A stretch of 64,000 bases of DNA from Patescibacteria group bacterium. Lineage in GTDB: Bacteria > Patescibacteriota > Minisyncoccia > UBA6257 > 1-14-0-10-40-38. Under the pieces are notes generated by a model. It had not been told where the DNA came from. It saw only the letters and a program-made list of their open reading frames with translations, and did no database searches. This document shows, piece after piece, positions 3,741 through 41,157 of this stretch. The DNA is taken from positions 79,154 to 143,153 of the forward strand of contig JBBTRX010000006.1 in assembly GCA_038064975.1 (NCBI GenBank), written 5' to 3'. Positions within the stretch are counted from its first letter, which is position 1. Every line of letters starts with the position of its first letter. The position numbers and the translations under genes are program-made.

Positions 3741-4667
3741 TTATTGAGAAGTTTTCTCAATGATCATAGCAGTGTTTTTCAGACAAGTTTCTTTCTTCCT
3801 TTCTTGTTCTATAAATTCACAAACCGAAATGTCTGGCAATAAAGCAGCAACCGAATCAAAACAGCCGTCTTTATCGGTAAGATTAGTAAGATTATTACAA
3901 AGAGATGGATCGTGTTCTTGTACTGCTAAGTTAATATAACAAGCGCGTATAGTATATTTCCCCACATTAAGACAAATGTCAGAGTTTTTAGTCTGCAGAG
4001 CCGCATTGTTATAACAAATACCTTGCCAAATTTCACCTTTTAATAATTTACACGCTTCAGAGTCGCCAGTATTTCTTACCACTTCAGAAACGCATTCGGG
4101 AAATGTAGCGCTACTAGAAGGGTCATGAATTTTAAAACACAAAGAAATGTCATTTTGCGCAATCGCTTTTTGTTGTAAAAGCTTACTTTCTTCAGATGTC
4201 TGATATGAAGTAATTGAAAAAATAATAAAAACAAATAAAATAACGGACAGAAAATAATTAAATATCTCAATATTAGGGCGACGTTCCTTTTGTCTGTGTA
4301 GTATGGAAACGATAATTATTGAAACAATTGCGACCAACAAAGCAGGGGTGGCAAACCATAACAACTCACGGAACGAAACAAGATCTGCTTCCGGCAAAGC
4401 AATTTTATTGTAAACAAGCGGAGAGATAAAAACCCATACCATAGGAGCAATCCAGAGCAGTATTTTAGTCCTATGATAAAGAAGAAGAGATGCTAAAAAT
4501 AAAAGAAAAAGAATTCCAAAATGAGCTATTCCATACGAATTAAGGGTTGCGAAAAATCTGCCCTGATAACGGTAATTCAGAATAAGTCTTGGCAGAAGAG
4601 TAATAAGGGATGAGCCAATAATAGCAAGAGCAATATTATGTAGTATTTTTCTTAATGTTGCGTTCAT
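3741..4667 (-). CDS. integral membrane protein with a C-terminal Cys-rich extracytoplasmic domain (hypothetical)
   Basis: Five or six predicted TM helices in the N-terminal 170 aa, followed by a domain with more than 12 Cys. The DNA is AT-rich (island). Confidence 0.5.
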   Translation of the reverse strand: MNATLRKILHNIALAIIGSSLITLLPRLILNYRYQGRFFATLNSYGIAHFGILFLLFLASLLLYHRTKILLWIAPMVWVFISPLVYNKIALPEADLVSFRELLWFATPALLVAIVSIIIVSILHRQKERRPNIEIFNYFLSVILFVFIIFSITSYQTSEESKLLQQKAIAQNDISLCFKIHDPSSSATFPECVSEVVRNTGDSEACKLLKGEIWQGICYNNAALQTKNSDICLNVGKYTIRACYINLAVQEHDPSLCNNLTNLTDKDGCFDSVAALLPDISVCEFIEQERKKETCLKNTAMIIEKTSQ

Positions 4668-4727
4668 ATATAAATTCTATCAGATATTTTCTAGGTTTGC
4701 AGAATTGGGCAAAAAGGGGCAGAATAA

Positions 4728-4847
4728 TTTGAAGTTACTATTCCTATAGAAATAGTTCGCGAACTCAAATGGAAAGAGAGGCAGCGCGTAGTCGTAACCA
4801 AGAAGGAAAAATCTTTGATTATTAAGGACTATACTCCGAAGAAGTAA
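4728..4847 (+). pseudogene. AbrB/MazE (SpoVT-AbrB swapped-hairpin) antitoxin-like remnant without a canonical start codon
   Basis: Frame 3 translates FEVTIPIEIVRELKWKERQRVVVTKKEKSLIIKDYTPKK*, which contains the IPxEIR and KxGDxV-like core of AbrB/MazE domains. No ATG, GTG or TTG start lies after the preceding TAA, and no toxin partner follows. Confidence 0.25.
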
Positions 4848-4912
4848 GAGGGTGTAAAGAGATTTCTTACAGGGATATTTGAGGCAAAGGTTTTTCTGCT
4901 ATTGATATATCT

Positions 4913-5530
4913 ATGAATATTTTTCAAAAAGGAAATTTTGAACCATTGTCTAATGAATTTAAACGATTAGGATTTTTAGCTTTGCAACAACTATCAAAAT
5001 TTCAAAAAAAATTTAATATTAGTGACACAGACACAACAATTAATTCTATTAGAGATACTATTGTTTCTAGTTATTTAGGCTTTGATCTTATTAATAAGAA
5101 CAAGCATGGTTTCGATGCAAAAAATAGTAGAACCGGAGAGTTTCTTGAAGTTAAGCAGTGTAGTTCGTCTGCAAAAAGATGGGGTGGCACATGGAATGAT
5201 ACGAATTTTGAAAAAGCAAAAGCTTTTTCAAATGCAAAATTATTTACAGCAGTTGCTGTCTGGAGTGGCGCCAGTGATCTTCAATTTATTGTTTTTGGTC
5301 AGAATAAAAAGTTAGGTTTATATTTACTGGATAGAGTAAAAAATAGAAAAAGCGGAAGTCGTTCAACACAAACTATTAGTATAGAAAAACTTATAGAGTG
5401 GGGGTTTATCGTTATTGTGCCTCCCGACAAAAAAGTAAACGCAGTATTGAAACAATTAGCTGTATATAAAAAGGGAGTATCTAAATATCTTAATTCTAAA
5501 AACATTAAGAAAGTAAATAATTTTAGATAA
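4913..5530 (+). CDS. putative type II restriction endonuclease (PD-(D/E)XK fold) of an R-M module
   Basis: HGFDAKNSRTGEFLEVKQ gives D-x10-E-V-K, a canonical PD-(D/E)XK catalytic spacing. AT-rich, basic, and convergent to a DNA methyltransferase gene. No other family signal was recognised. Confidence 0.4.
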   Translation: MNIFQKGNFEPLSNEFKRLGFLALQQLSKFQKKFNISDTDTTINSIRDTIVSSYLGFDLINKNKHGFDAKNSRTGEFLEVKQCSSSAKRWGGTWNDTNFEKAKAFSNAKLFTAVAVWSGASDLQFIVFGQNKKLGLYLLDRVKNRKSGSRSTQTISIEKLIEWGFIVIVPPDKKVNAVLKQLAVYKKGVSKYLNSKNIKKVNNFR

Positions 5531-5532
5531 AT

Positions 5533-6228
5533 ATGTTAATAGATAAATTTAATAAATTTCTAAAATCGATTGATCTTGAGGCTTATAGAAATCAATATAG
5601 GCCCGTTAAGATTGTAGAAATGGATTTATCCAAAGAGATACAAGCAATTGAAATGCTTTATGAAGTTTATTGGCATCAAAAAAGATTTTTGACGTTTGAA
5701 GAATTTTATGAAGAATATTTAAAAAGTAAGGGAAAAGAGATTGAAGTTTTTAGAAAAAAGACTACGATGTGCAAAGATTGTTTCTATAGAGGATTGCCTG
5801 CAAGAATTTATAGAACATGGGCTAGTATTATTACTCAAATACATGCAGGATATGTCGCTGAGTCTGTTTTTGGAACAGGGACAGTCTCTATGTCTATAGA
5901 ACTTGATCATAAAGGAGCGGATTTTCAGGTTGAATATATAAAGAGAATTTTAAATTATCAAGTAAAAAAGAAATCTCTTGGCAGAGAAGTTAGACAAGAA
6001 AAACCAAAATCAAAGAACCCGTTAAAAGGGGAATTTGTAGATATTAAATACGAAGTTCCTAGTAGTGATTATTTTGAAAATCCGAAAAAGAAGAATGGGG
6101 ATTATAAATTGCCATATGAAAGATTTAAAAACAATAAAGAATTAGAAAGATTTTCAAACGGCTTTGTTGTTTTTACTCCCTATGTTTTTCAGAAAAAGAA
6201 AAAGGAAATAGATGATACTTTAAAATAA
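5533..6228 (+). CDS. hypothetical protein, probable second component of the R-M-like module (nuclease or specificity subunit)
   Basis: Begins 3 nt after the preceding stop (operon). Contains ELDHKGADFQVEYIK acidic/Lys motifs. AT-rich island composition. No confident family assignment. Confidence 0.4.
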   Translation: MLIDKFNKFLKSIDLEAYRNQYRPVKIVEMDLSKEIQAIEMLYEVYWHQKRFLTFEEFYEEYLKSKGKEIEVFRKKTTMCKDCFYRGLPARIYRTWASIITQIHAGYVAESVFGTGTVSMSIELDHKGADFQVEYIKRILNYQVKKKSLGREVRQEKPKSKNPLKGEFVDIKYEVPSSDYFENPKKKNGDYKLPYERFKNNKELERFSNGFVVFTPYVFQKKKKEIDDTLK

Positions 6229-6229
6229 T

Positions 6230-7744
6230 TCAAGAAATATTTACACTAGATACTATCTTTTCGGCCATCCGTACGTAATCGGGATTAATCTCAAAACCGA
6301 TATACGATTGTCCTAATTCTTTTGCTGCGACACATTCTGAACCAGTTCCCACAAACGGGACGAGAACCACGCCGTCTTTATTCGGAATTGCTGACCTGAT
6401 AAGCCTTCTAGAAAGCTCAAGGGGTTTCTGTGTAGGATGTTTCATTATTTCATGTCCTTCGTGTTTCTGTAATTGTCGTGGCGCATGTACTTCGTCGCAG
6501 GTTTTGCATAAAAACCATCTTTCAATCATTCCTGCTCCACCAGCTAAAGCAGCGATTTTAATAACATCTCGGGGCAATGCTCCACCAGCATGAGCGTTGT
6601 AAATAGTCTCAGTCCCTCCTTTACTGAATCTTCCCACCGTTCCTTTTCTTACTTTTCCAGCAGCTCCATTTAAAAATCCTTCGGTATAGGGTTCCCTAAC
6701 GTCATCTCTATTAAAATTTGGCTTCTCTTTCCAAGCGCAAATAATTGATTCATGACTTCTCTGCCAAAAATTTAAAGAAGCAACATTTTTATTCGTATAA
6801 TGCCAAATTAACCAGCGTTTATTTATAGGGATTTCTACAGAGAGATGAGCTAAAATTTCACTAAATCCATATATAAACATTGTTCCCGCTGGTTTCATTA
6901 TCCTAATACTTTGATTGATCCATTCTTTGCACCACGAAACATATTCACTTAATTCTCGTTTATCAATGTTATTTCCAAAATCTTTACCGATATTATATGG
7001 AGGATCAATTATAATAACGTCGCAACTTTCTGACGGCAAATCTGATAATCCTTTTATTACATCACTTAATAATATTTTATTGAGTGGGAGTTTTTGATAT
7101 TTTTTCTCTTCCCTTTTGATTTTCGGCAAAACCGAAACATTTTGAGGATTTTCTTTAATCACATCAAGTACGATTCCTTGTATAGAAACATCACGATCAT
7201 CTCGTAATATGATCGGCTCCATGTTTTTATTTGCCGGCTGTAATCGTATATGATTTTTTTCTTTATAGAATTTTTTTAACGTTGCTTCTTGATTATCTAT
7301 TAATGCAACAACTTTTTCTCCATTGTTTGCCGTTGATTGATGTTTGACAAGAATGATGTCCCCATCATTTATATTTTCTTCAACCATACTATTGCCAATC
7401 ACGCGAAGCGCATAAACATCTCCAGAAAGGGGGATTCTGTTTTGCGGTACAGCAATCGTTTCTTTTTCTACGTCAAAAAGAGTAAGGGGTTGTCCTGCGG
7501 CAATGGCGCCCAAGAGGGGAACTTTCACTAATTTTTCTGATCTGGATATCGTTATACTGCGCGGCTTATTGATTTGTTTATTTAATAAACCCATTTCTTC
7601 TAATGCGCTTACGTGCTGGTGTACGGTAGAGACTGCTCGCAATTTGAAATGATGCTTAATTTCTTGGAGTGAAGGAGCGTACCCCTTTTTAGCGGTGGAA
7701 GCGATAACAAAGTCGTAGATTTGTTTTTGTTTCCTTGTGAGCAT
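6230..7744 (-). CDS. LexA repressor fused to a beta-class N4-cytosine/N6-adenine DNA methyltransferase
   Basis: The N-terminal 200 aa align along their whole length with LexA: LTRKQKQIYDFV winged HTH, the Ala-Gly cleavage site in PLLGAIAAGQP, catalytic Ser in GNSM and Lys in ATLKKF. The C-terminal 300 aa carry IIIDPPYNIG (motif IV DPPY), HPTQKPLEL and VLVPFVGTGSE (motif I); this order is typical of pfam01555-type MTases. Confidence 0.8.
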   Translation of the reverse strand: MLTRKQKQIYDFVIASTAKKGYAPSLQEIKHHFKLRAVSTVHQHVSALEEMGLLNKQINKPRSITISRSEKLVKVPLLGAIAAGQPLTLFDVEKETIAVPQNRIPLSGDVYALRVIGNSMVEENINDGDIILVKHQSTANNGEKVVALIDNQEATLKKFYKEKNHIRLQPANKNMEPIILRDDRDVSIQGIVLDVIKENPQNVSVLPKIKREEKKYQKLPLNKILLSDVIKGLSDLPSESCDVIIIDPPYNIGKDFGNNIDKRELSEYVSWCKEWINQSIRIMKPAGTMFIYGFSEILAHLSVEIPINKRWLIWHYTNKNVASLNFWQRSHESIICAWKEKPNFNRDDVREPYTEGFLNGAAGKVRKGTVGRFSKGGTETIYNAHAGGALPRDVIKIAALAGGAGMIERWFLCKTCDEVHAPRQLQKHEGHEIMKHPTQKPLELSRRLIRSAIPNKDGVVLVPFVGTGSECVAAKELGQSYIGFEINPDYVRMAEKIVSSVNIS

Positions 7745-7875
7745 ATACTAATTTTAACAATAAAATACCGAAAGAAAACCGAAACTTATCCCCAGATTGC
7801 TTTGTGCATTTTTAGAGAGTAAAATACTAATGTAAATTTAAGGTCCGACTTAGAAAAAGCACTTCGTTTCTTCCA

Positions 7876-7902
7876 AGCCGGGCTCCCGCCCGGTTTTGTT
7901 TA
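7876..7902 (+). terminator. orphan intrinsic terminator-like hairpin 18 nt upstream of the next start codon
   Basis: ccgggc-tccc-gcccgg followed by ttttgttt. No plus-strand gene lies upstream. Confidence 0.4.
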
Positions 7903-7919
7903 GAAAAAATTAACAGTAT

Positions 7920-8855
7920 ATGATCAATGCAATAGAACTTTACGGAACCCTAATTCTTACTTTACTTGGCTTTATTGTTCCCATTCTAACGATTCTACTT
8001 TCTTTATTTCCACAAGGTACAAAATCATTAGCACTTAAATATGAAAATGAAAGAAAGCAAAGTGAAGAAAATATTTCAAATGAAATTAAAAAGAAAGAAA
8101 CAGAAAAAGGACTAGATTACGATTCTCTTAAGGAGACGCTGAAAGGTTTAGAAAAAAAGAGGTCAGAAGCTAAATCAAAGCTTGAGTATTTACATCCAGG
8201 CAGCTTTCTTTTCAAAACAACGATCCCATTCATTGTTGCATTCATGGGCGTATTACTCATATTACTTGACATACCAATTTTTGAAACGATTATAGTATTA
8301 ATCTCTAGCATTTTTGCTTTCGTAGCCGGAGTTATGACTTTATTTACTAGCATATCTGTTCTATTTGAAGTAGGAGAAATCACTAACCAAGCAAAAAATT
8401 CTAACGAAGAAAAAATAATTGAACTCTTATCAATTTTAGTTGAAAACAGTGGAACAGATAACCTTTATTTAAAAGAAGACGAAATCAAAGTGAAATTCGG
8501 TGATAAAAATCTAAAAGAAAACGAGAAGTTTGATTTTTCAGTTAACACTCAACATAAAATATCCATTAGGGTCCATAACAGCGCAGACAAGATGGCAAAA
8601 AATATTGAAGTAGGCTTTGTCTTTCCTAAAGATGTTTTAATAGAGAAAACATCTAATCTATCTTCAATATTTACAGATGAATCAATTCAAATTGTAAGAT
8701 TCAAGAATGAAATAATTCAGGCACATGAAAGTAATGATAAAGGTGCTCTACGAATTACTTTTTTGAAACCCGGAGAGGTGTCAATAGATCTATTTATAAA
8801 AGGAGAAAACGTAAAATACAAAAGATTTTCTTTCAAACTTAATATAATAAACTAA
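7920..8855 (+). CDS. membrane protein with charged coiled-coil segment (hypothetical)
   Basis: Two TM pairs flank a KE-rich segment; the C-terminal domain is soluble. AT-rich island composition. Confidence 0.5.
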   Translation: MINAIELYGTLILTLLGFIVPILTILLSLFPQGTKSLALKYENERKQSEENISNEIKKKETEKGLDYDSLKETLKGLEKKRSEAKSKLEYLHPGSFLFKTTIPFIVAFMGVLLILLDIPIFETIIVLISSIFAFVAGVMTLFTSISVLFEVGEITNQAKNSNEEKIIELLSILVENSGTDNLYLKEDEIKVKFGDKNLKENEKFDFSVNTQHKISIRVHNSADKMAKNIEVGFVFPKDVLIEKTSNLSSIFTDESIQIVRFKNEIIQAHESNDKGALRITFLKPGEVSIDLFIKGENVKYKRFSFKLNIIN

Positions 8856-8880
8856 TATAGTTCTAGAAAAAATAATAAAA

Positions 8881-9294
8881 ATGGAAATAATAAAAGATAT
8901 TAAAGATCGCATTCAGTTCCTAGTAACCATTGAAATATTTTTTCTGACTTTGACTTACTCTTTCTTTAGATCTGTGGGAAGTGATGAGTTGGTGTCTAAC
9001 AAGAATGCTTTCGCATGGGGAATAGGTGTTGCTTTTTGTATAGTGAATTATCTTTTGATCGGAAATTTTACTGAATTTAAAAGTTCTTTTCTTAAGAAAA
9101 TTTGCTGGACTATATCTGCAAATATTTTCTTTTTTATTATACCGATTCTGATTTTCGCCTCCGCCATGAGCAATCCATTACCATCTTATTATAATTTACC
9201 ATTTTATCTTTCTCTCACGGGAACATTATGGATGCCCATTATAACGACTGCTTTTATGGTTATAGGAGGAACTTATTTTAAATTTAAAAAATAA
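8881..9294 (+). CDS. hypothetical integral membrane protein (4 TM)
   Basis: Hydrophobic 137-aa ORF. It is the last gene of the AT-rich island. Confidence 0.45.
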   Translation: MEIIKDIKDRIQFLVTIEIFFLTLTYSFFRSVGSDELVSNKNAFAWGIGVAFCIVNYLLIGNFTEFKSSFLKKICWTISANIFFFIIPILIFASAMSNPLPSYYNLPFYLSLTGTLWMPIITTAFMVIGGTYFKFKK

Positions 9295-9296
9295 TT

Positions 9297-9773
9297 ATGA
9301 GGATAAACAACACATTCAAGCTCATTATAGCCATTGTTGTTTCCGAACTCGCCGGGATCATTGGCTCGGTATTCACGATATCGTCCGTCGCTGGCTGGTA
9401 TGCAGGAATCGTGAAGCCGGCAATTAATCCTCCAGCGTGGGTGTTCGGACCGGTCTGGACGACGCTCTTTGCGCTCATGGGCATCGCCGCGTTCCTCGTA
9501 TGGAAGAAAGGATTGGATCGTAGGGATGTAAAAATTGCCCTCGGTATATTTCTCGGCCAGCTAATCCTGAACACGCTTTGGTCAATTATCTTTTTCGGTC
9601 TACGCAGTCCTGGCGGTGCATTGATTGAGATCGTATTCCTCTGGCTCGCCATTCTCGCTACTATCATCGCTTTTGCAAAAATCTCAAAACCGGCAGCTTG
9701 GCTTTTGGCGCCGTATATCCTTTGGGTTAGCTTCGCGATGTACTTAAACTACGCAATCTGGGCATTGAATTAA
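9297..9773 (+). CDS. tspO: TspO/MBR family tryptophan-rich sensory protein
   Basis: Five-TM architecture with conserved Trp/Pro patterns (PPAWVFGPVWTTLF, LWSIIFFG, APYILWVSFA). GC content returns to the genome average here. Confidence 0.85.
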   Translation: MRINNTFKLIIAIVVSELAGIIGSVFTISSVAGWYAGIVKPAINPPAWVFGPVWTTLFALMGIAAFLVWKKGLDRRDVKIALGIFLGQLILNTLWSIIFFGLRSPGGALIEIVFLWLAILATIIAFAKISKPAAWLLAPYILWVSFAMYLNYAIWALN

Positions 9774-9783
9774 AACATGAGTA

Positions 9784-9819
9784 CAACATTCCAACATTCT
9801 GCAGATTGTTGGAATGTTG
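9784..9819. repeat. palindromic repeat copy 1 (CCAACATTCTGCAGAATGTTGG family), one mismatch; candidate operator/promoter element
   Basis: caacattccaacattctgcag/attgttggaatgttg pairs at 17 of 18 positions about a CTGCAG centre. It is followed by TGTAAATAT, which looks like a -10 box. Confidence 0.7.
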
Positions 9820-9907
9820 TAAATATTGCGCAATATTATTAATCAAATCACATTTTGTGCGTAATAGCGTTCATATATATACTAGATACAGAAAATAAAA
9901 ACTAATT

Positions 9908-10672
9908 ATGCAAAAAACATTACTTTCAATTGGAGGCGTTCTCATCATTCTCGTCGTGGGGTTCTTTGTGCTGAATAGCTACATATACAATGAAAAGCAG
10001 GCGGGCTTTACCGCAGGGGATACGGTTTCGGCTACAGGCACCGTGCTTGCTATTGATTTGGAACAGGTAGCCTTTGATGGGCCATTCCTGATTACCTTAA
10101 AGCCTGAGGACGGCAAGCTCCTCACAATTGCCGTGCCTTCTATGGGACTGCAACTCTGTGAGGCGTATAAGGCGCTCAATATTGGTGACGTATCGCTCAT
10201 TAAAGTAGGCGACGAGTTTGAAGTGCGCGGAATCGTAGGCGAAGACGGCTCAATCGTCCCATGCGAATCCGCGGATCACTATCTGCGCCCCACGCCACTT
10301 ATTGTGGAGGACTTTGAAGGCGAAGCAGATCCTAAAGTCATGACACTCAACATGAAAACGTGGAATTGGATATATGCAATGAGTGGTGGAGAGGAAATTC
10401 AACCAAAAGCTCCAGGCATATTTACGCTCACATTTGGTGAAGAAAATAGATTTACCGCCACAACCGACTGCAACGCCATGTCCGGCAGCTACTCTGTAGG
10501 TACCTCCACGATTGCGTTCTCAAAAATCATCAGCACAAAAAAATTCTGCTCAAATTCCCAGGAATCTGATTTCGCATCCATCCTTCAAAAAGCAACCGGC
10601 TACCACTTCACCTCCCGCGGCCAACTCATTCTAGACTTCAAAACCCCCTCCGACACCGCAGAATTCAACTAA
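9908..10672 (+). CDS. membrane-anchored extracytoplasmic protein with C-terminal META/HslJ-like (DUF306) domain
   Basis: N-terminal signal-anchor MQKTLLSIGGVLIILVVGFF. The C-terminus reads ...FTLTFGEENRFTATTDCNAMSGSYSV...KFCSNSQESDFASILQKATGYHFTSRGQLILDF, which matches the META-domain pattern. Confidence 0.6.
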   Translation: MQKTLLSIGGVLIILVVGFFVLNSYIYNEKQAGFTAGDTVSATGTVLAIDLEQVAFDGPFLITLKPEDGKLLTIAVPSMGLQLCEAYKALNIGDVSLIKVGDEFEVRGIVGEDGSIVPCESADHYLRPTPLIVEDFEGEADPKVMTLNMKTWNWIYAMSGGEEIQPKAPGIFTLTFGEENRFTATTDCNAMSGSYSVGTSTIAFSKIISTKKFCSNSQESDFASILQKATGYHFTSRGQLILDFKTPSDTAEFN

Positions 10673-10720
10673 CCCTTACCTCACGACACTCCAACATTCT
10701 GCAGATTGTCGGAATGTTGT
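10670..10720 (+). repeat. 51-bp direct repeat, copy A (begins at the stop codon of the preceding gene and includes palindrome copy 2)
   Basis: taacccttacctcacgacactccaacattctgcagattgtcggaatgttgt is identical to 11599..11649. Confidence 0.85.
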
Positions 10721-10740
10721 AAATAGAGCAAAACAACATT

Positions 10741-11601
10741 ATGCAAAAAACGCTACCAATAATTATCATCATGATAATCATCGTGGGTTTTGGTGTAGCG
10801 TGGAAGTTCGTAAACAATGAAGCGCCGAGGGGTATGAGCACTGAATGCACGAAAGATTCCGATTGCCCCTCTCTACTATATCTCTGTGAGGAAACACAGG
10901 GTTCGGGAACGGTGTGCTCCAGCACCGACCCCACATGTGTTCCTACGCACACGACCATTGCAGGAGAATGCAAAGTAAAAGAAGGTAATCGTTGTACGCT
11001 GGATTCAGACTGCGCTTCCGGAAATATATGTAATAACAACCTTTGTACAAGTCCGATCGGAAGGGAATGCAGCGGACCAAGCGACACGAGCTGTCCCACG
11101 GATTTTGAATGCATACAAGGGTGCGGTTCGCCAGTTGGGTATCCAGGTGAGCCACCGCCTCCATACTTCTGTCAGCTTAAAGGCTATATTCGCTCGTGCC
11201 CTATTTGTCTTGCCAAACATACGTTAATTGATACGCCGCTTGGTGCGGTAGCAGTAGAAAATTTACAAAAAGGTACACCAGTGTGGACGGTGAGTAGTTC
11301 CGGCGAGCGCGTTTCCGGAGTAGTTACGCTGACGAGCAAAACGCCCGTTCCGTTAAGTCACAGGATGGTACAGCTTGTACTACAAGATGGGCGTACGCTT
11401 TCTGTTTCTCCAGGACACCCGACTACTGATGGACGCAAGGTAGGAAGCCTCACTCCAGGCGAGGTATATGACGGCGCTCGGATAATTTCTTCTCACCGAG
11501 TTGCCTACGGAGACGGATATACCTACGATCTTTTACCCTCGGGCGAAACCGGATTTTACTTCGCAAACGGGATTCTTCTTGATAGTACACTCCGCCCCTA
11601 A
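10741..11601 (+). CDS. secreted/membrane-anchored Cys-rich protein with C-terminal Hint (bacterial intein-like/Hedgehog-type) autoprocessing domain
   Basis: Signal-anchor MQKTLPIIIIMIIIVGFGV, a region with about 20 Cys, then Hint blocks. Block A is CLAKHTLIDTPLG, block B (TxxH) is LSVSPGHPTT, and blocks F/G are YTYDLLPSGETGFYFANGILL. There is no terminal HN and no C-extein. Confidence 0.65.
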   Translation: MQKTLPIIIIMIIIVGFGVAWKFVNNEAPRGMSTECTKDSDCPSLLYLCEETQGSGTVCSSTDPTCVPTHTTIAGECKVKEGNRCTLDSDCASGNICNNNLCTSPIGRECSGPSDTSCPTDFECIQGCGSPVGYPGEPPPPYFCQLKGYIRSCPICLAKHTLIDTPLGAVAVENLQKGTPVWTVSSSGERVSGVVTLTSKTPVPLSHRMVQLVLQDGRTLSVSPGHPTTDGRKVGSLTPGEVYDGARIISSHRVAYGDGYTYDLLPSGETGFYFANGILLDSTLRP

Positions 11602-11649
11602 CCCTTACCTCACGACACTCCAACATTCTGCAGATTGTCGGAATGTTGT
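11599..11649 (+). repeat. 51-bp direct repeat, copy B (includes palindrome copy 3)
   Basis: Identical to 10670..10720. The TGgTAATAT extended -10 sits immediately 3' of it, and the ArsR start codon is about 7 nt beyond that, implying a leaderless transcript. Confidence 0.85.
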
Positions 11650-11665
11650 GTGGTAATATAGAGAG

Positions 11666-11953
11666 ATGGACAAGACGAAATCACCAAAACAGATGGAACG
11701 TCATCTGAAGGGGATGGCGAATCATTATCGTATTGAGATACTTCTTCTTATCGCCGATCGCTCGAAAATAACGCTGGAGGAAATTACCGACATAGTTGGG
11801 GCAAACGAGAAAACCCTTAGTGAACACACAGGTAAACTCTATCAAGTTGGACTGATCAATAAAAAATACCGCGGCAGGTTTGTAGAACACTCCCTGTCGC
11901 CCTACGGCAAAACATTCGTCCGTTTCTTACAATCATTCCAAAACACGCAATAA
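11666..11953 (+). CDS. ArsR/SmtB-family winged-helix transcriptional regulator
   Basis: HLKGMANHYRIEILLLIADRSKITLEEITDIVGANEKTLSEHTGKLYQVGLINKKYRGRFVEHSL matches the ArsR HTH-wing pattern. It is flanked on both sides by the palindromic repeat. Confidence 0.75.
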   Translation: MDKTKSPKQMERHLKGMANHYRIEILLLIADRSKITLEEITDIVGANEKTLSEHTGKLYQVGLINKKYRGRFVEHSLSPYGKTFVRFLQSFQNTQ

Positions 11954-11998
11954 CATTCCAACATTCTGCAGAATGTTGGAATGTTATTGTTTTTGTTT
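11951..11998 (+). terminator. palindromic repeat copy 4: perfect 36-nt palindrome plus U-tract, an intrinsic terminator
   Basis: taacattccaacattctgcagaatgttggaatgtta has 18-bp perfect arms around TGCA, followed by ttgtttttgttt. It overlaps the ArsR stop codon. Confidence 0.75.
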
Positions 11999-12073: not shown

Positions 12074-13819
12074 ATGAAGCTCCTCTGGCAATACATTAAG
12101 CAACAGAAAAAGATACTTATCCTTGCGCTTGTTTTAGCGACGATTAACCAAGTTTTCTCTCTGCTTGATCCGCAGGTATTTCGGCTTATCGTTGATAGAT
12201 ACGCTACGAATGCATCCTCATTTACTGCTTCGGAGTTCGCCCGTGGGATTTTAGGATTACTCTTGTTATCTATGGGAGTAGCGTTTGTTTCTCGTGTCGC
12301 GAAGAATTTCCAAGATTATTATGTAAGCATCATTACTCAGCGAGTCGGCGCTAATCTTTATGCCCACAGCATCCATCATTCATTCTCTTTACCCTACGCA
12401 GCGTTTGAAGACCAGCGTTCAGGTGAATTGTTGTTGAAACTACAAAAAGCGCGTACGGACGCGCAAACACTCATTACGAGTTTTGTGGGAATTATATTCC
12501 TATCCACGGTAAGTATGGTCTTTGTGGTTGGCTATGCCTTTACTGTTAATTGGATTATTGGCACGGTGTATTTAGCTATTATTCCGATTGTCGGTACAGC
12601 ACAGTTTTATCTCTCGCGACGTATTAAAGGGGCTCAAAAAGAAATTGTCACGCAGACTGCATCCCTCGCTGGAGCTACAACAGAAACATTGCGGAACGTT
12701 GAGCTCGTGAAAAGTCTTGGGCTTGAAGCCCAGGAATCTGGACGATTGAACGACGTGAACGAAAAAATATTAGGTTTAGAATTACGAAAAATTCGGTTAA
12801 TTCGCGCACTAAGTTTTATCCAAGGAACAACGATCAACGCTATTCGCTCGGCGCTTCTTTTCCTTATGATGTGGCTTATCTTCAAGCAGGCGATAACGTT
12901 TGGAGAATTTTTCAGTCTTTATATTTATCTCTTCTTTATAATGGAACCGTTATCCAGCTTGGGTACGATTGCAAATACGTACCAGGAAACCCGCGCGAGC
13001 ATGGAGAAGCTTCAGCAAATTTTAGATACTCCTGCAGAAAAGAAACCGGAACATCCGCATACGATTGGTTCGCTAGACTCCATCACATTTAAAGACATGA
13101 GCTTTGCGTACAATGCGGGCAGCGAGCATTCTGCGAAGCAAATTAATCTCACGGTGGAAAAAGGGCAGACCGTAGCATTCGTAGGACCATCCGGATCTGG
13201 AAAGACTACAATGGTTAAAATTCTCCTTGGACTCTATAGGCCGACGAGCGGAAAGCTGCTCATGAATGGCGTGGACAGTGAATCTATTGATTACGACGCA
13301 CTCCGTAGGCGTATTGGTTATGTCTCACAGGACACGCAACTCTTTGCCGGTACGATTCGAGAAAACTTATTATTCGTAAATCCCGAAGCAAGCGATTCGG
13401 AATGTATGGAGGCATTACGGCATGCATCCGCTCTGCCTATTATTGAGCGCGGAGGAAAGGGACTCGAGACAAGGATCGGAGAAGGTGGAATTAAAATCTC
13501 GGGTGGAGAGCGCCAGCGCCTCGCGATTGCCCGCGCATTACTTAGGAATCCGGACCTCATTATTTTTGACGAAGCGACGAGCAGTCTTGATTCCCTGACG
13601 GAAAAAGAAATTTCGGATACTATTAAAAGTATCGGTATTACGCGGCCGAACTTGATGACGATCATGATCGCGCACCGGCTCTCTACGATTGCCCATGCGG
13701 ATACGATCTACGTTCTAGAACAAGGCAGGCTAGAAGAGCAGGGGACGCATAAGGGATTGCTGGAAAAGCGTGGTTTGTATGCAGCATTATGGAGAGAGCA
13801 GGGAGCAAACAGAGAATAG
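12074..13819 (+). CDS. ABC exporter, fused permease-ATPase (MsbA/MdlB-like)
   Basis: Six-TM N-terminal domain. C-terminal ABC domain with GPSGSGKTT, ISGGERQRLAIARAL and IIFDEATSSLD. Confidence 0.88.
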   Translation: MKLLWQYIKQQKKILILALVLATINQVFSLLDPQVFRLIVDRYATNASSFTASEFARGILGLLLLSMGVAFVSRVAKNFQDYYVSIITQRVGANLYAHSIHHSFSLPYAAFEDQRSGELLLKLQKARTDAQTLITSFVGIIFLSTVSMVFVVGYAFTVNWIIGTVYLAIIPIVGTAQFYLSRRIKGAQKEIVTQTASLAGATTETLRNVELVKSLGLEAQESGRLNDVNEKILGLELRKIRLIRALSFIQGTTINAIRSALLFLMMWLIFKQAITFGEFFSLYIYLFFIMEPLSSLGTIANTYQETRASMEKLQQILDTPAEKKPEHPHTIGSLDSITFKDMSFAYNAGSEHSAKQINLTVEKGQTVAFVGPSGSGKTTMVKILLGLYRPTSGKLLMNGVDSESIDYDALRRRIGYVSQDTQLFAGTIRENLLFVNPEASDSECMEALRHASALPIIERGGKGLETRIGEGGIKISGGERQRLAIARALLRNPDLIIFDEATSSLDSLTEKEISDTIKSIGITRPNLMTIMIAHRLSTIAHADTIYVLEQGRLEEQGTHKGLLEKRGLYAALWREQGANRE

Positions 13820-13834: not shown

Positions 13835-14131
13835 GTGGGAGCGACGAAGATGTCGCAGTTTAATAAAACGCGACGTACTATTGAATCTATGTACTCCGTC
13901 TACATTCTAGAGTGTGCTGATAAAACTCTTTACATAGGGTCTACAAACGATTTAAAAAAGCGACTAAAGGCACATAACGGATTAAAGGGCGGGGCGCATT
14001 ACACAAAAATTCGCCGCCCGGTGACACTCAAGTATTCGGAAAATGTGAGAACCTTTGCAAAAGCCCGTAGTCGAGAAGCGGAATTAAAAAGATTATCCAG
14101 AGAAGAAAAATTAAAACTTATACAATTATGA
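13835..14131 (+). CDS. GIY-YIG nuclease superfamily protein (UPF0213-like); the real start may be the internal ATG at 13889
   Basis: MYSVYILECADKTLYIGSTNDLKKRLKAHNGLKGGAHYTKIRRPVTLKYSE matches the GIY-YIG consensus. Confidence 0.7.
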   Translation: MGATKMSQFNKTRRTIESMYSVYILECADKTLYIGSTNDLKKRLKAHNGLKGGAHYTKIRRPVTLKYSENVRTFAKARSREAELKRLSREEKLKLIQL

Positions 14132-20635: not shown

Positions 20636-20678
20636 AAAGTAGCTCGCATTCTTTTCAAAAAGCTATCAGAGTTACTCG

Positions 20679-20723
20679 TATGCTCTTCACAAAGCTATCA
20701 GAATGACCTTTGTGAAGAGCATA
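20679..20723. repeat. perfect 16-bp inverted repeat with 13-nt loop (hairpin), flanked by AAAGCTATCAGA direct repeats
   Basis: tatgctcttcacaaag ... ctttgtgaagagcata. It lies between the convergent typA and a small membrane protein gene and is a possible bidirectional terminator without a clean U-tract. Confidence 0.5.
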
Positions 20724-21430: not shown

Positions 21431-22134
21431 GAAATCTTGCATCGCTTCGAAAAGAGCTTTACGGGCACGCAAATAAGGGGAAGGCAAAGATCCTATCCGG
21501 CTTTTTTAAGACCGGAAAAGGAGAATATGGCGAGGGGGATATTTTTATTGGTGTAACCGTGCCGCAATCCCGCGCCATCGCAAAGAAATTCCATCATCTT
21601 GAAATCCGCGACATCGGGAAACTATTGCGATCTAAAATCCACGAAGAGCGCCTCGTCGCCATACTTTTACTAGTTCATAGATTTATGGACGGCGGGAACA
21701 AGGCTCGAAAGGAAACATATGATTTTTATCTCAAGAATACAAAATATATTAACAACTGGGATCTTGTAGACCTTTCTGCAGACAAAATCGTCGGAGCATA
21801 TCTTTTAGATAGGAATACGGATATTCTCCACAAGCTTACGCGTTCAAAAAATATCTGGGAGCGGAGAATAGCCGTAATCGCAACATTCCAATTTATTAAA
21901 AATTATCATTATAACGAAACAATACGGGTTTGTAGTAATCTTTTAGAAGACGACCATGATCTTATCCATAAAGCGGCTGGCTGGATGCTTCGCGAAGTAG
22001 GCAAGCGATCACTAGCAACAGAAGAACTCTTTCTTAAAAAGAAGTATAAAAAAATGCCCCGCACTATGCTCCGCTACGCGATTGAACGATTTCCGGAGAA
22101 AAAGAGAAAGGAATATTTAGAAGGAAAACTATAA
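21427..22134 (+). CDS. DNA alkylation repair enzyme (AlkD-like HEAT-repeat family, pfam08713-like)
   Basis: HEAT-like repeats, a GWMLREVGKR motif and a typical length of about 230 aa. ATGA overlap with the tfoX-like gene. Confidence 0.65.
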   Translation: MRNLASLRKELYGHANKGKAKILSGFFKTGKGEYGEGDIFIGVTVPQSRAIAKKFHHLEIRDIGKLLRSKIHEERLVAILLLVHRFMDGGNKARKETYDFYLKNTKYINNWDLVDLSADKIVGAYLLDRNTDILHKLTRSKNIWERRIAVIATFQFIKNYHYNETIRVCSNLLEDDHDLIHKAAGWMLREVGKRSLATEELFLKKKYKKMPRTMLRYAIERFPEKKRKEYLEGKL

Positions 22135-22189
22135 AAAAGAAGAGCCCCGAGCGCGTGTGCGCCCGAGGCTGTGACTGTTGTGCTTGTGA

Positions 22190-37600: not shown

Positions 37601-38095
37601 TTACGCAAGACTGCTTGCGATATCGCCTACGGGTTGAGCTTTTTCGTCAATAACTGCGATTGTATCTCCTTTGGGAGCCCTTGAAAGTTCTACTGCAAAT
37701 CTTTTCCGCGACCGAGTCTCTTGAACAATACCAACCCATTTTTCTTCTGCCTTCGCAACGTCGAGGTCAAGATCCTCAGGAAGAAGACTCCCCGACCCGG
37801 GAATAGTACAGCCAGCAAGCACTTGATACGAAACTCCCTTTTCCAGTCTGGTAATAGAATCAAGTGTCCCTTTTTCTCTCTTTGTGGTGATAATATCTGT
37901 AAGTATTATCGAACCCGCAGCTGTTACAATTGCTAGTAGGGACCCGAAGAAAAAAATCATGCTACTTTCATCCGCAAAGATTCCGCTGATCAATGCGAAA
38001 ATAAGTGACAAAATAACAAGACCGGGTACTCGTAGCACATGACCTCCTTGCGGTTCGTGGGAAAGAGCAGAAAAACCTTCAATAACATATAGCAT
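37601..38095 (-). CDS. membrane protein with C-terminal soluble beta-rich domain (hypothetical, possibly NfeD-like)
   Basis: Three TM helices in the N-terminal 100 aa, then a soluble tail. No confident family assignment. Confidence 0.4.
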   Translation of the reverse strand: MLYVIEGFSALSHEPQGGHVLRVPGLVILSLIFALISGIFADESSMIFFFGSLLAIVTAAGSIILTDIITTKREKGTLDSITRLEKGVSYQVLAGCTIPGSGSLLPEDLDLDVAKAEEKWVGIVQETRSRKRFAVELSRAPKGDTIAVIDEKAQPVGDIASSLA

Positions 38096-38155
38096 GCATT
38101 CATAGGAAACGTCAAATATGAATTGTTATAAGTTGTTTCTATTTTAAGTGGTATA

Positions 38156-38941
38156 ATGTCTTTTAATATGGATTGGTTTAAAGATGAAAAAGAATTTATG
38201 GAAGCGTGCGGATACGATATCGACGGCAAGTGGTATCCCCGCGTGACAAAGATTATCTCTATTAAGGCAAAACCCGCGCTCTATAGATATTACGGCGAGG
38301 CTGCGAGCTATAAGGCGGCGCAAGAAAGCACTCAAAAGTCCGCCGAAGAAGGAACCCTTATGCATGAAGTGGTTCAAAAAATAATGGTCGGGGAAAGCCC
38401 TGAAGTCCCCCCTTCTATCGCTCCGGCAGTTAAAGAGACAATTGATATATTGGAACGCCGCAACATCCAAATAGATCCGGAATCCATTGAGCGCCGTATC
38501 GTTAACTTTAATGAGCGCTATGCCGGCACAATAGACGCTACGGCCCTTATTGACGGCCGATTTGGAGTTCTAGACATCAAGACCTCACAAGCGATATATA
38601 GAGATTATAATTTGCAGACTTCGGCGTATATGGACCCTTTGAGCCGTGAGCGCGCTCACGTGCAAAGCCGATGGATATTGCGTATTGATCAGAATCAGAT
38701 ATGTAATCGCTGCAGTGCTACGCTCCGAACAAAAGGAGGAAGGGCAAAGCTAAAAAAAGCATATGGTAATGGCAAACGGGCATGTCCTGACGAAAGCCAT
38801 GAATGGTCCGAAATGCGTGGAGTTGTAGAACTAAAAGAATTCCCCTACTGGAAAACAGATTATGAGGCATTTCTTTCGGCAAAAAAATTGTGGGAGTGGG
38901 AAAATGATTATTGGCTAAGAAGGATTGGATATCTAAGTTAA
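38156..38941 (+). CDS. PD-(D/E)XK nuclease superfamily protein (RecB/Cas4-like exonuclease fold) with Cys4 insertion
   Basis: YPRVTKIIS, LMHEVVQK and GTIDATALIDGRFGVLDIKTS give a D..D-I-K catalytic motif. CNRC...CPDESH forms a zinc ribbon. Confidence 0.55.
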   Translation: MSFNMDWFKDEKEFMEACGYDIDGKWYPRVTKIISIKAKPALYRYYGEAASYKAAQESTQKSAEEGTLMHEVVQKIMVGESPEVPPSIAPAVKETIDILERRNIQIDPESIERRIVNFNERYAGTIDATALIDGRFGVLDIKTSQAIYRDYNLQTSAYMDPLSRERAHVQSRWILRIDQNQICNRCSATLRTKGGRAKLKKAYGNGKRACPDESHEWSEMRGVVELKEFPYWKTDYEAFLSAKKLWEWENDYWLRRIGYLS

Positions 38942-38974
38942 ATTTAACTTAATTATTTTTCGCATCAGCATAAA

Positions 38975-39300
38975 AAAAGACCCCAGCTCTCGTAGAACGA
39001 GATCAGGGGTGGAGGAACCAGCGAAAGCATTCTGGGATGTCGGTCTCTCAAAGCTTTAGCTCAAACAACTAGGAAACGTGGGGAAGAGTGACCACGTCAG
39101 ACCCGGAAAGAGGAAGTCCGGTTCTTAGTTGAAGCACCGAGCAAAGAGAGAACTGTGCAATTCCTTTCACTTCTTTGAGCGAGAGATTTTACACAGCCCA
39201 TCCGACTAACGCCAGCGCTTTCGCCGGTCACGGAAACAAGAAACTGGCAAAAGGGAAAAACCCGCGACAGGACACGCGTCATCCACTAAAGCCAAGTACA
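38975..39300 (-). ncRNA. candidate stand-alone noncoding RNA of about 325 nt (unknown family)
   Basis: Bounded by a TTGACA-16-TAATAT promoter (39306..39333) and a terminator (38975..39012: cccctgatctcg...cgagagctgggg followed by UCUUUUUUU). There is no convincing ORF or RBS. It contains a GACCCGGAAAGAGGAAGUCCGG hairpin. Confidence 0.3.
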
Positions 39301-39305
39301 ATATG

Positions 39306-39333
39306 TGCTGCCGTAATATTACCTTCTCACGCT
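39306..39333 (-). promoter_or_regulatory. sigma70-type promoter of the candidate ncRNA
   Basis: On the minus strand: TTGACA, 16 nt, then TAATAT. Confidence 0.45.
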
Positions 39334-39409
39334 ACGATGTCAAGGGGTAGATGTATTCCCATAATTAGTTATGGTTATACACAATAAATACTGTTCTAAG
39401 CTTCTACTC

Positions 39410-40078
39410 TTAAAAATGAAAAATTTGTGAAAGCTCTCCCCCCTGAAGTACTACCTTTTGTTTAGGTTCGAAAATATGATATGAAAATTGGTCAATAAAA
39501 TCTTCGTTTTTAACGCGAACCGCTTTAAAATTCTTAAATGATTGGGCGGCGGTGTCAAAAACCTCTCTTGCCCGAAAGGGAGTATTCGCGCTCGTTACGA
39601 GGCGCATATTCATAGCACTCCCCCGCTTTTCCGGCTTGGATATGACTTGAAATGAAGCGGATTCTCCCAAAAGTTCTACCGTAGAAAGTTCTTTTGCCAT
39701 GCGCGAAAATGCTGTCATTTCTCCCGATGCCTCTGTAGTTTTATTTTTAGGCACAAGATAACCTGCTTCCACGGCATGACCCACAGAAAAAAGATTGTAG
39801 TCGTGCATGGCATACATCTCCGTTCCGGGCAGAGCTTTTTTAAGATTATGTTCTATGAGCGGGTACACAGAAATAGGCATGGCCATATACCATGCGATTT
39901 CTTTACCAAAATTATGAACTGCTGCTTCTAACGTGAATGGAATTCGCGAGCGTTCTAGAGTGTCGTAGAACTCCGCGGCTTTCCCCGGATACCCCATTCT
40001 AAACACAGTTGGAGTTTTAACGGTAAAAAGTTGGACGCGTTCAAGGTGTCGTGAAAAATACTGAAATGGGTTTTGCAT
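39410..40078 (-). CDS. hypothetical protein (222 aa)
   Basis: Clean ORF with normal composition. No family recognised. Confidence 0.5.
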   Translation of the reverse strand: MQNPFQYFSRHLERVQLFTVKTPTVFRMGYPGKAAEFYDTLERSRIPFTLEAAVHNFGKEIAWYMAMPISVYPLIEHNLKKALPGTEMYAMHDYNLFSVGHAVEAGYLVPKNKTTEASGEMTAFSRMAKELSTVELLGESASFQVISKPEKRGSAMNMRLVTSANTPFRAREVFDTAAQSFKNFKAVRVKNEDFIDQFSYHIFEPKQKVVLQGGELSQIFHF

Positions 40079-41087: not shown

Positions 41088-41116
41088 ATTCAAAATAGTA
41101 TACTTTGATTTACTAT

Positions 41117-41157
41117 AAAAAAGAAGAGCCCCACGGCAACCGAAGTTGCCGTGGGGC
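41117..41157 (-). terminator. intrinsic terminator (perfect 13-bp stem) of the upstream minus-strand operon
   Basis: gccccacggcaac-cgaa-gttgccgtggggc with a U-tract on the minus strand. Confidence 0.7.

Follow-up and report, generated by a model that had tools for sequence, protein, structure and literature searches.

The 64,000-nucleotide stretch of DNA analysed here (the window) contains a perfect 52-bp direct repeat, probably the product of a recent duplication in which the upstream half of an arsR operator-promoter was copied locally, and the palindrome within each repeat copy is likely the cognate site of an ArsR-like protein encoded just downstream, as judged from sequence. The palindrome is nearly unchanged in more than 100 candidate-phyla-radiation (CPR) and PVC-group genomes, all data deriving from uncultured MAGs, and together with its winged helix-turn-helix (wHTH) protein it apparently forms a dispersed pair that was previously undescribed; a literature search found neither the sequence nor the peptides it encodes in any publication, and no ArsR palindrome from CPR bacteria.

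The two repeat copies occupy positions 10669 to 10720 and 11598 to 11649. The preliminary description had reported a 51-bp repeat, and exactly two occurrences of that 51-mer were recovered (10670-10720 and 11599-11649; 0 of 100 shuffles matched); an additional identical C upstream, at 10669 and 11598, brings the true length to 52 bp, with identity ending at 10668/11597 (a versus c) and at 10721/11650 (a versus g). As had also been noted, each 51-bp copy opens with the TAA stop codon of the preceding gene, at 10670-10672 for ORF 9908-10672 and at 11599-11601 for ORF 10741-11601, and these two genes, encoding a META-domain protein and a Cys-rich protein with a Hint_2 domain, are mutually unrelated (best BLASTP E = 0.88). 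Behind the shared C and stop codon, the first copy continues with CCCTTACCTC and a palindrome, with no -10 box following, while the second continues with the same flank and a palindrome that forms part of the putative arsR operator; each copy can be read as a 13-bp flank joined to a 38-bp imperfect palindrome. The repeat is supported by an independent assembly, in which Logan unitig L129 (937 bp, 3 samples) spans from the interior of the first copy to the interior of the second at 100% identity to the window and breaks inside the copies, the behaviour expected of a k-mer graph at a true repeat. A recent common origin of the copies, as originally proposed, is borne out by the 13-bp non-palindromic flank and the four departures from the family consensus that both have in common. 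In JGI metagenomes, a scan for a 28-mer that includes the substitutions specific to the window returned 0 matches, and thus no strain-level variants, whether having the middle gene or missing it, were found.

The palindrome has the consensus AACATTCCAACATTC-TGCA-GAATGTTGGAATGTT, measuring 34-38 bp with two AACATTC heptads per arm. While the 51-mer itself is limited to its two occurrences, the palindrome embedded in it is present in four copies within 2.2 kb around arsR, with 0 elsewhere in the 64 kb. The copies bracket every gene of a TspO-META-Hint-arsR-ABC cluster oriented on the positive strand, and none lies inside a gene. This four-copy family was overlooked in the preliminary description. 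The first gene of the cluster, TspO/MBR (9297..9773), recurs near ArsR homologs in other lineages, and is separated by palindrome 1 (9783..9820; ACAACATTCCAACATTC TGCA GATTGTTGGAATGTTGT, one mismatch to the 34-bp consensus) from the gene for a membrane-anchored META-domain protein (9908..10672). Palindrome 2 (10683-10720), with four mismatches to the consensus, lies in the first repeat copy ahead of the middle gene, which encodes the membrane-anchored Cys-rich/Hint_2-domain protein (10741..11601), and palindrome 3 (11612-11649) lies in the second repeat copy, overlapping the arsR promoter. Palindrome 4 (11950..11987) is a perfect consensus copy that overlaps the arsR stop codon TAA and precedes a T-run that extends to about 12000; 86 nt separate it from the gene for an ABC exporter with fused transmembrane domain and ATPase (12074..13819), and similar exporters were identified in 7 other loci, within the 8-kb locus of the palindrome. 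Stop-to-core spacing is 18-19 nt in the window and often 5-30 nt outside it.

Palindromes 1 to 3 share a GATTGT substitution found at 0 of 122 other sites, and this exclusivity indicates local descent of the three copies. Palindromes 2 and 3 carry four symmetry-breaking substitutions, two of which fall in the inner heptad, elsewhere almost invariant, so that binding to these copies may be weak. At palindrome 3, the flank TTACC pairs with a downstream GGTAA to form a longer palindrome (about 11604-11657), and the same extended palindrome stands in front of the arsR gene of locus L111; palindrome 2 has the left extension of palindrome 3 and lacks both the right extension and the -10 box. The pairing at palindrome 3, its likeness to L111 and the missing right half of palindrome 2 suggest that copying proceeded from palindrome 3 to palindrome 2. 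Copies within other genomes likewise share copy-specific flanks (L117 and L037). The preliminary description had speculated that the repeat could recruit new genes into a regulon, which is not supported: both the N- and C-terminus of the Hint protein are native, and in another lineage (L130) a 67% identical homolog lies upstream of an ArsR homolog, at a distance of about 1.1 kb, so that the Hint gene looks like an old neighbour and not a new recruit. Two further candidate relationships were rejected. The META and Hint genes have only a signal-anchor start in common, the MKKTLPII-type N-termini being native to the Hint family, and are not considered tandem paralogs; the gene upstream of arsR in L077 is not supported as a Hint ortholog (E = 0.004).

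The arsR-like gene (11666..11953, positive strand) encodes a 95-aa ArsR/SmtB-like winged-helix protein, the putative binder of the palindrome, with a match to Pfam HTH_5 (PF01022, 28.0 bits against a cutoff of 22). Among PDB structures, phmmer matched it to ArsR (6j0e) and HlyU (4k2e, E = 1.8e-4), and the NCBIfam HTH_metalloreg model scored 40.3, under its cutoff of 55. A search for a metal- or metalloid-sensing Cys/His site (alpha3N, alpha5 and similar) found none, with 0 Cys in the 95 aa and no conserved Cys across 31 homologs. There are about 2000 homologs of the protein, and an exact-sequence look-up returned no record. The AlphaFold model built with 31 homologs reached a pLDDT of 54.6, too poor to be used for mapping covarying residues.

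Palindrome 3 ends 16 nt before the arsR ATG and directly 5′ of a putative extended -10 box, TGgTAATAT (11651..11659, positive strand), which is not part of the repeat and whose distance of 6 nt from the ATG implies a leaderless mRNA. This promoter architecture is conserved in about 20 loci, where 42-56 nt separate the start of the palindrome core from the arsR ATG, a TATAAT-like box lies at a spacing of 17 bp from the right-arm TTGGAA, and the ATG comes within about a further 7-15 nt. Among 122 family members, on which the promoter-side and in-gene statistics are based, a -10 box at 16-18 bp from TTGGAA was found on 58% of arsR-upstream sides, and at 6% of other gene starts, on a par with the 8% of gene ends; overall, such a box is found on 3-8% of sides other than those of arsR. 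The difference between arsR sides and other gene starts indicates that the element is not a portable operator-plus-promoter cassette. The earlier reading of the repeat as a cassette of operator and promoter therefore survives in one part: the palindrome is very plausibly the operator of the adjacent ArsR-like regulator, whereas a complete promoter is not contained in the repeat, the arsR -10 hexamer TAATAT (11654-11659) lying beyond it and palindrome 2 having AAATAG in its place.

The exact 22-nt core of the palindrome was identified at more than 118 loci in CPR, Verrucomicrobiota, Kiritimatiellia and Lentisphaerae. Of these loci, 28 contain an ArsR homolog, nearly always directly adjacent to the palindrome, with the site usually overlapping its -35; apart from arsR, no recurrent target gene family was found beside the site. 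According to crude gene calls on both sides, 30 sites lie between convergent genes versus 15 between divergent genes. Complementarity continues 2-3 bp past the conserved core with several pair types, and A- and T-runs often flank the element in AT-rich genomes. Viral contigs contained 0 matches to the palindrome and one ArsR homolog, and so give no phage link.

Residues of the recognition helix and wing covary with the palindrome type. The window protein, with recognition helix KTLSEHTGKL and wing GRFVEHSL, resembles in both elements a clade of 50-62% identical proteins associated with the consensus palindrome. By comparison, its closest homologs (n = 119, about 73-79% identical) all have the helix KT[ILV]GEH.[RL]RL, in 112 of the 119 as KT[IL]GEHTRRL, and the wing GKFVEHTL is found in the 30 that were aligned; homologs of this closest type (77% identical), in L119, L125, L130 and L131, have another 34-bp palindrome, AACATCCTTACAAAC..GTTTGTAAGGATGTT, on either side of their genes. 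In L035 and L012, SEHV occurs together with the variant ACATACC..GGTATGT. This covariation suggests that the ArsR-like protein binds the palindrome in a sequence-specific manner.

About 20 of the 122 family members lie in frame inside housekeeping genes, in ORFs with Pfam-verified domains, with copies in PrmC, MurD, MiaA, GltX, FBA, TsaD, MnmA and 6PGD, and the AACATCCTTACAAAC-type palindrome lies inside TspO in L119. Read from the consensus, all frames of the element are free of stop codons. For PrmC in four genomes, the element is 97% invariant versus 71% for its flanks, which points to constraint at the DNA level, although 22 of the 34 nt are fixed by the search pattern. Among FBA orthologs the insert is present, decayed or absent, all in one hypervariable loop; the idea that every FBA ortholog holds a lineage-specific palindrome in this loop was rejected, the inserts of L134, L135 and L136 being tandem heptamers and that of L132 a short direct repeat. 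No target-site duplications were seen around in-gene copies.

Under the proposed explanation, the palindrome would act as a double-stranded DNA site of the 95-aa protein. Palindrome 3 would span roughly -54 to -17 of the leaderless arsR promoter, and protein bound there would occlude RNA polymerase, resulting in autorepression of arsR. Palindrome 4 with its T-run may also terminate arsR, and palindromes 1 and 2 would be extra sites between TspO and META and between META and Hint, palindrome 2 being derived from palindrome 3 and serving at most as an additional binding site or roadblock, not as a promoter. This operator function is weakened by the many sites where a classical operator makes no sense, namely the convergent and in-frame ones, by the missing recurrent target family besides arsR, and by pairing beyond the core, which a dimeric protein alone need not have. 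A broader and more tentative possibility, somewhat doubtful at present, is that protein and 34-bp palindrome constitute a mobile site with a dedicated binder, common to CPR and PVC bacteria. New copies of the site would arise behind stop codons, in the gaps of convergent gene pairs and, in frame, within loops of essential genes, and would then be kept invariant at the DNA level, the specificity of the protein having switched between lineages along with all of its sites. The protein may then work across the genome as a roadblock, insulator, cruciform-control or chromosome-organising factor, similar to ParB-parS, instead of a classical regulon repressor.

A selfish dispersed palindromic repeat, similar to RPE or REP, is an unlikely alternative, in which the element would be copied and pasted into spacers and tolerant protein loops, the repeat identity would mark the latest transposition or template switch, the ArsR-like protein would use or tame one copy, and palindrome 2 would be functionless. 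The in-frame copies in housekeeping genes and the other palindrome type inside TspO are consistent with such an element, as are its open frames, its variable presence and decay in FBA, the private extensions and one-sided flanks common to copies within one genome, and the lack of a recurring neighbouring gene family. However, copy number is low (four copies in the 64 kb, each of them at arsR, with single matches on contigs of 220-290 kb), neighbour clustering found no transposase or recombinase family recurring near the element, target-site duplications are missing, the pattern-limited invariance in PrmC exceeds that of its flanks, and function is favoured by the promoter geometry at arsR, which is tight and conserved. 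That the palindromes act at the RNA level, as hairpins serving as terminators, processing sites or 3′-end stabilisers between cistrons, with the repeat as a terminator duplicated after two stop codons, is improbable. Such a role would account for the closeness of sites to stop codons, the excess of convergent gene ends, the A- and T-runs in AT-rich genomes and the complementarity beyond the core, and stable hairpins are predicted for palindromes 1 (-22.7 kcal/mol, z -5.8), 3 (-22.9 kcal/mol) and 4 (-30.9 kcal/mol), with z-scores of -5.6 to -7.3 for the three. In a terminator scan palindrome 4 alone passed (11947-11990), scored as a bidirectional intrinsic terminator; both repeat copies failed, palindromes 1 to 3 have no U-tract, and palindrome 2 folds weakly (-13.4 kcal/mol, z -2.5). 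Terminators are moreover not conserved in sequence, whereas the 34-mer is nearly invariant across phyla, the family-wide T-runs are not on the side predicted by the direction of transcription, G·U wobbles are not enriched in sense RNA (9 sense versus 20 antisense), and a search of Rfam gave no family match, with only sub-threshold miRNA-like hairpins.

The least credible alternative is a gene-cassette boundary, of the integron attC type or another site-specific recombination system, by which the Hint gene and a palindrome would have entered as a circle at a resident palindrome to give an A-B-A arrangement. Circle integration does yield an A-B-A direct repeat, three consecutive genes are each individually bracketed by palindromes, and the Logan graph taken alone is compatible with L-A-R plus a circular A-B. 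Against this, clustering of neighbours at 118 loci revealed no recurrent integrase, the element is invariant in sequence instead of in structure only and measures 34-38 bp compared with 57-141 bp, its ends GTACAAC and GTTGTAA do not fit RYYYAAC/GTTRRRY, a crossover inside the palindrome leaves the common 13-bp flank unexplained, and the Hint homolog lies close to an ArsR homolog in another lineage. Local duplication of an arsR operator half remains the preferred reading, by which the 51-bp identity in the window would reduce to an ordinary local operator duplication.

CPR bacteria have tiny genomes that encode very few regulators, and hardly any of their regulatory DNA is known from experiment; the conserved 95-aa winged-helix protein and exact 34-bp site, with their clear promoter architecture, offer one testable regulator-site pair. 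The two protein-palindrome clades provide a natural specificity switch for comparison, and a site unchanged across phyla and present in frame in essential genes raises the question of how binding palindromes spread and persist.

ArsR/SmtB autorepressors, including SmtB, CzrA, CadC and ArsR, act at 12-2-12 inverted-repeat operators. The pair described here resembles them in its small winged-helix protein with an HTH_5 match, in the palindrome over its own promoter and in the conserved xTxSxH recognition helix; unlike them, the window protein has no Cys or metal-binding site, and the site is a much longer, nearly perfect 34-bp palindrome of four heptads that further occurs scattered at gene ends and within genes, with its exact sequence kept across phyla. 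HlyU of Vibrio is an ArsR-family wHTH protein that attenuates a DNA cruciform and has an inverted repeat as its binding site (PMC10325908). It is among the best structure-sequence matches of the window protein, and its palindrome near a promoter can extrude as a cruciform; HlyU, however, de-represses a virulence promoter at one locus, whereas the present site overlaps the -35 of the regulator's own gene and is found at several places per genome that are unrelated to one another. As with CIRCE/HrcA and parS/ParB, a perfect palindrome is near-invariant across phyla with few copies per genome, one of them at the gene of its binder, and some parS sites are likewise intragenic; the protein family is unrelated to those systems, and no conserved target regulon was found. 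The density of DNA uptake sequences (DUS/USS), about one per kb genome-wide, differs from four clustered copies in the window, neither repeat copy combines a stem-loop with the U-tract of an intrinsic terminator, and the core sites, structure-only conservation and nearby IntI of integron attC sites were not found, integrases having been sought by neighbour clustering. REP/BIME elements with RAYT ('REPtron') occur in hundreds of copies, with a HUH Y1 transposase and a GTAG head. Like the present element, they are short palindromes located behind gene ends, with a dedicated gene that has palindromes on either side, but the bracketed gene here encodes an ArsR-like wHTH protein, copies are few per genome, and neither a GTAG head nor the high copy number and HUH Y1 transposase of REP/BIME was found. 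Rickettsia palindromic elements (RPE) were reportedly described by Ogata and colleagues in 2000 and are mentioned in PMC1779305. RPE are about 100-150 bp long, confined to Rickettsia and not known to have a cognate gene for a binding protein. They share with the present family the in-frame palindromic insertion into housekeeping protein genes, tolerated as extra loops, and differ from it in that the element here is 34-38 bp long, low in copy number, hosted by CPR and PVC MAGs and paired with a wHTH gene; the family provides a second, independent example of the RPE phenomenon, now with a candidate binding partner.

The 51-bp sequence TAACCCTTACCTCACGACACTCCAACATTCTGCAGATTGTCGGAATGTTGT occurs exactly twice in the window, at 10670-10720 and 11599-11649, and has no match in any of 100 shuffled sequences. 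Reading of the sequence adds one identical base upstream, giving a true length of 52 bp (10669-10720 and 11598-11649), and the identity breaks off abruptly at both ends. The first copy opens with the TAA closing an ORF with a META domain (9908-10672) and the second with the TAA closing a Cys-rich ORF with a Hint_2 domain (10741-11601), the two proteins having no relationship to each other. An independently assembled 937-bp Logan unitig from three samples (L129) runs from the interior of the first copy to the interior of the second at 100% identity; collapse in the assembly is unlikely, because a k-mer graph breaks in this manner at a genuine repeat. The exact repeat at the stops of two unrelated genes, as reported in the preliminary description, is therefore confirmed.

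Both repeat copies include members of a four-member palindrome family that had previously been left unconnected, with the unit AACATTCCAACATTC-TGCA-GAATGTTGGAATGTT, each arm of which contains a pair of AACATTC heptads at a spacing of 8 bp. Copy 1 (9783-9820) has one mismatch to the consensus, copies 2 (10683-10720) and 3 (11612-11649) have four in common, and copy 4 (11950-11987) is perfect; no fifth copy was found in the 64-kb window with nine mismatches allowed. Together they bracket each member of a cluster of genes in one orientation, encoding TspO, the META protein, the Hint protein, an ArsR-like protein and an ABC exporter. TspO, which opens this cluster, is also a recurrent neighbour of ArsR homologs elsewhere.

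The product of the arsR gene (11666-11953) is an ArsR/SmtB-like winged-helix protein of 95 aa that lacks cysteines, and the ATG of the gene lies 16 nt past the end of copy 3. Between them is an extended -10 (TGgTAATAT) only 6 nt from the ATG, implying a leaderless transcript. Among the matches listed, about 20 arsR-bearing loci have the palindrome core starting 42-56 nt upstream of the arsR ATG, with 17 bp separating the right-arm TTGGAA from a TATAAT-like box that the ATG closely follows. A -10 at 16-18 bp accompanies 58% of arsR-facing sides of the listed family sites, compared to 6% of other gene-start, 8% of gene-end and 3% of remaining sides. The conserved promoter-operator arrangement is thus specific to arsR, a pattern pointing to autoregulation. 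A promoter within the repeat itself, as previously proposed, is not borne out, since the -10 occurs mainly at arsR sides and is missing from copy 2.

A family scan using the 22-nt core as query and one genome per species identified more than 118 loci among the matches listed, in Saccharibacteria, many Parcubacteria lineages, Verrucomicrobiota, Kiritimatiellia and Lentisphaerae, as well as three MAGs labelled Gammaproteobacteria, with up to four matching contigs from a single genome. The 34-bp consensus is near-invariant across these listed loci. In 28 of them there is an ArsR homolog, in most cases sharing 50-62% identity with the window protein, and it is nearly always the direct neighbour of the palindrome; arsR apart, no recurrent gene family adjoins the site at the listed loci. 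Where crude gene calls were available on both sides of listed sites, convergent-gene spacers outnumbered divergent ones (30 vs 15).

The recognition helix and wing of ArsR/SmtB proteins such as CzrA and SmtB touch DNA. All 119 of the closest ArsR homologs (approximately 73-79% identical) carry the helix KT[ILV]GEH.[RL]RL, 112 of them as KT[IL]GEHTRRL, and alignment of 30 gives the wing consensus GKFVEHTL. In the four of these lineages inspected (L119, L125, L131 and L130), arsR is bracketed as in the window, with its stop codon within the downstream palindrome, and the palindrome is a 34-mer that differs from the consensus, AACATCCTTACAAAC-..-GTTTGTAAGGATGTT. The window protein groups overall with this clade, yet has KTLSEHTGKL and GRFVEHSL, in agreement with a more distant clade bearing the consensus palindrome. 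SEHV is paired with the variant palindrome ACATACC..GGTATGT in L035 and L012, and in an alignment to ArsR 6j0e the window-protein Ser falls on the conserved T-I-S-H-H motif. This covariation is the strongest available evidence suggesting that the ArsR-like protein reads the palindrome, a role that stays inferential, the AlphaFold model (pLDDT 54.6) being too poor for use.

Copies 2 and 3 have four derived substitutions in common, along with 13 bases of non-palindromic sequence, and copies 1 to 3 share a GATTGT change seen in 0 of 122 listed sites of other genomes, indicating that the copies descend locally from one another. The shared flank TTACC of copy 3 pairs with GGTAA on its far side, and the same extended palindrome (ACCACAC..GTGTGGT) precedes arsR in L111. 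This two-sided extension and its parallel, against a copy 2 that has the left extension only and no -10, suggest that copy 2 was duplicated from copy 3. Comparable events are seen in L117, where both copies carry a private CCACG..CGTGG extension, and in L037, where approximately 30 nt of 3′ flank plus palindrome are common to two consecutive genes. Copying may have occurred by template switching at the hairpin, by recombination or in a cassette-like event. With native N- and C-termini and a 67%-identical homolog in L130, approximately 1.1 kb upstream of an ArsR homolog, the Hint gene is not obviously a newcomer. Recent duplication of the segment, as first interpreted, stands and its operator is probable, whereas a promoter-bearing, gene-recruiting cassette is not supported. 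The L130 Hint homolog, the closest one, itself lies between the copies of a 23-nt direct repeat, AAAAATGGGATAATTCGGGGGAA (755-777 and 1848-1870, 96% identical), that includes a TGnGATAAT-type extended -10 and looks like one promoter sequence reused ahead of consecutive genes.

About 20 of the 122 listed sites lie in frame within long ORFs, encoding HSNILQNVGM or TFQHSAECWNV, and the element is free of stop codons in all frames. Pfam-confirmed examples are PrmC (L019:4575, L063:7642, L097:252 and L110:905), class II FBA (L045:3536), MurD (L057:689), MiaA (L071:3544), GltX (L095:2190), TsaD (L038:5227), MnmA (L108:4710) and 6PGD (L042:438). The PrmC element occupies an identical site in four PVC genomes, with 97% invariant columns compared to 71% in flanking coding sequence, and two other gene pairs give 94-97% compared to 66-84%, values subject to ascertainment bias because the search fixed 22 of 34 nt. 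The AACATCCTTACAAAC-type palindrome of the closest ArsR homologs likewise occupies, in frame, a variable TspO loop (L119:5193-5226, within 4982-5479). The FBA loop is hypervariable and accepts repeats although the enzyme is essential: among orthologs it contains the palindrome, decayed versions of it, nothing, or in-frame tandem heptamers, GCATTCA x4 and CAACTTA x3-4 (L134:10406-10446, L135:2213-2245 and L136:2527-2560), the palindrome and the heptamers occurring in different CPR lineages.

Base complementarity runs 2-3 bp past the conserved core, where several types of pair occur, and the score for covariation is higher than in any of 500 shuffles or any slid control; common ancestry within extended subfamilies could be part of the reason. 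An RNA-level role for the palindromes is a weak alternative to the operator reading. Copy 4, overlapping the stop codon of arsR and with a T-run after it, alone among the four scores positive as an intrinsic terminator. However, the side of the T-run does not follow transcription direction, G·U pairs in the sense RNA are not enriched (9 vs 20), and Rfam holds no matching family. We consider the palindrome a probable operator.

Small GIY-YIG proteins, PD-(D/E)XK nucleases and PIF1-like helicases are repeatedly found close to ArsR-like genes and palindromes (L119, L120, L122, L121, L125 and L126; window 13835-14131), the PIF1 3′ end bearing a palindrome in L119 and L121, and a link to hairpin-DNA processing is possible. 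Directly upstream of the TspO-arsR cluster, a low-GC stretch (~4000-9300; 29-36% GC vs ~44% elsewhere) contains a 504-aa ORF on the negative strand (6230-7744) fusing LexA DNA-binding, S24 peptidase and N6/N4 DNA methyltransferase domains. Elsewhere in the window, an exact 21-nt repeat, ACTATAAAAAAGAAGAGCCCC, occurs at 22128-22148 and 41112-41132, 19 kb apart, and a separate tandem repeat (2 x 32 nt, 81% identity) lies at 20638-20701. Cumulative GC skew rises to ~39 kb and then falls (turning point about 38000-40000), suggesting that the window contains a terminus or origin of replication, or else a major strand switch; no tRNA genes were found across the 64 kb.

Searches of the literature and Rfam found no published description or entry for the element family. 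Membership of REP/RAYT elements is ruled out by low copy number and the lack of a recurrent transposase nearby, of integron attC sites by the core sites, the invariant sequence and the absence of any recurrent integrase, and of DNA uptake sequences by density. In-frame intragenic palindromes are otherwise known from Rickettsia palindromic elements. The local duplication is an ordinary event. The palindrome family, together with the winged-helix protein dedicated to it, seems to represent a so far undescribed variation on known kinds and merits experimental follow-up. In working principle, the pair is closest to ArsR/SmtB autorepressors acting on inverted-repeat operators, and its greatest resemblance is to HlyU, a member of the ArsR family whose binding site is an inverted repeat able to form a cruciform (PMC10325908); unlike in these systems, however, the site here is long, perfect, invariant across phyla and dispersed, including in frame within genes.
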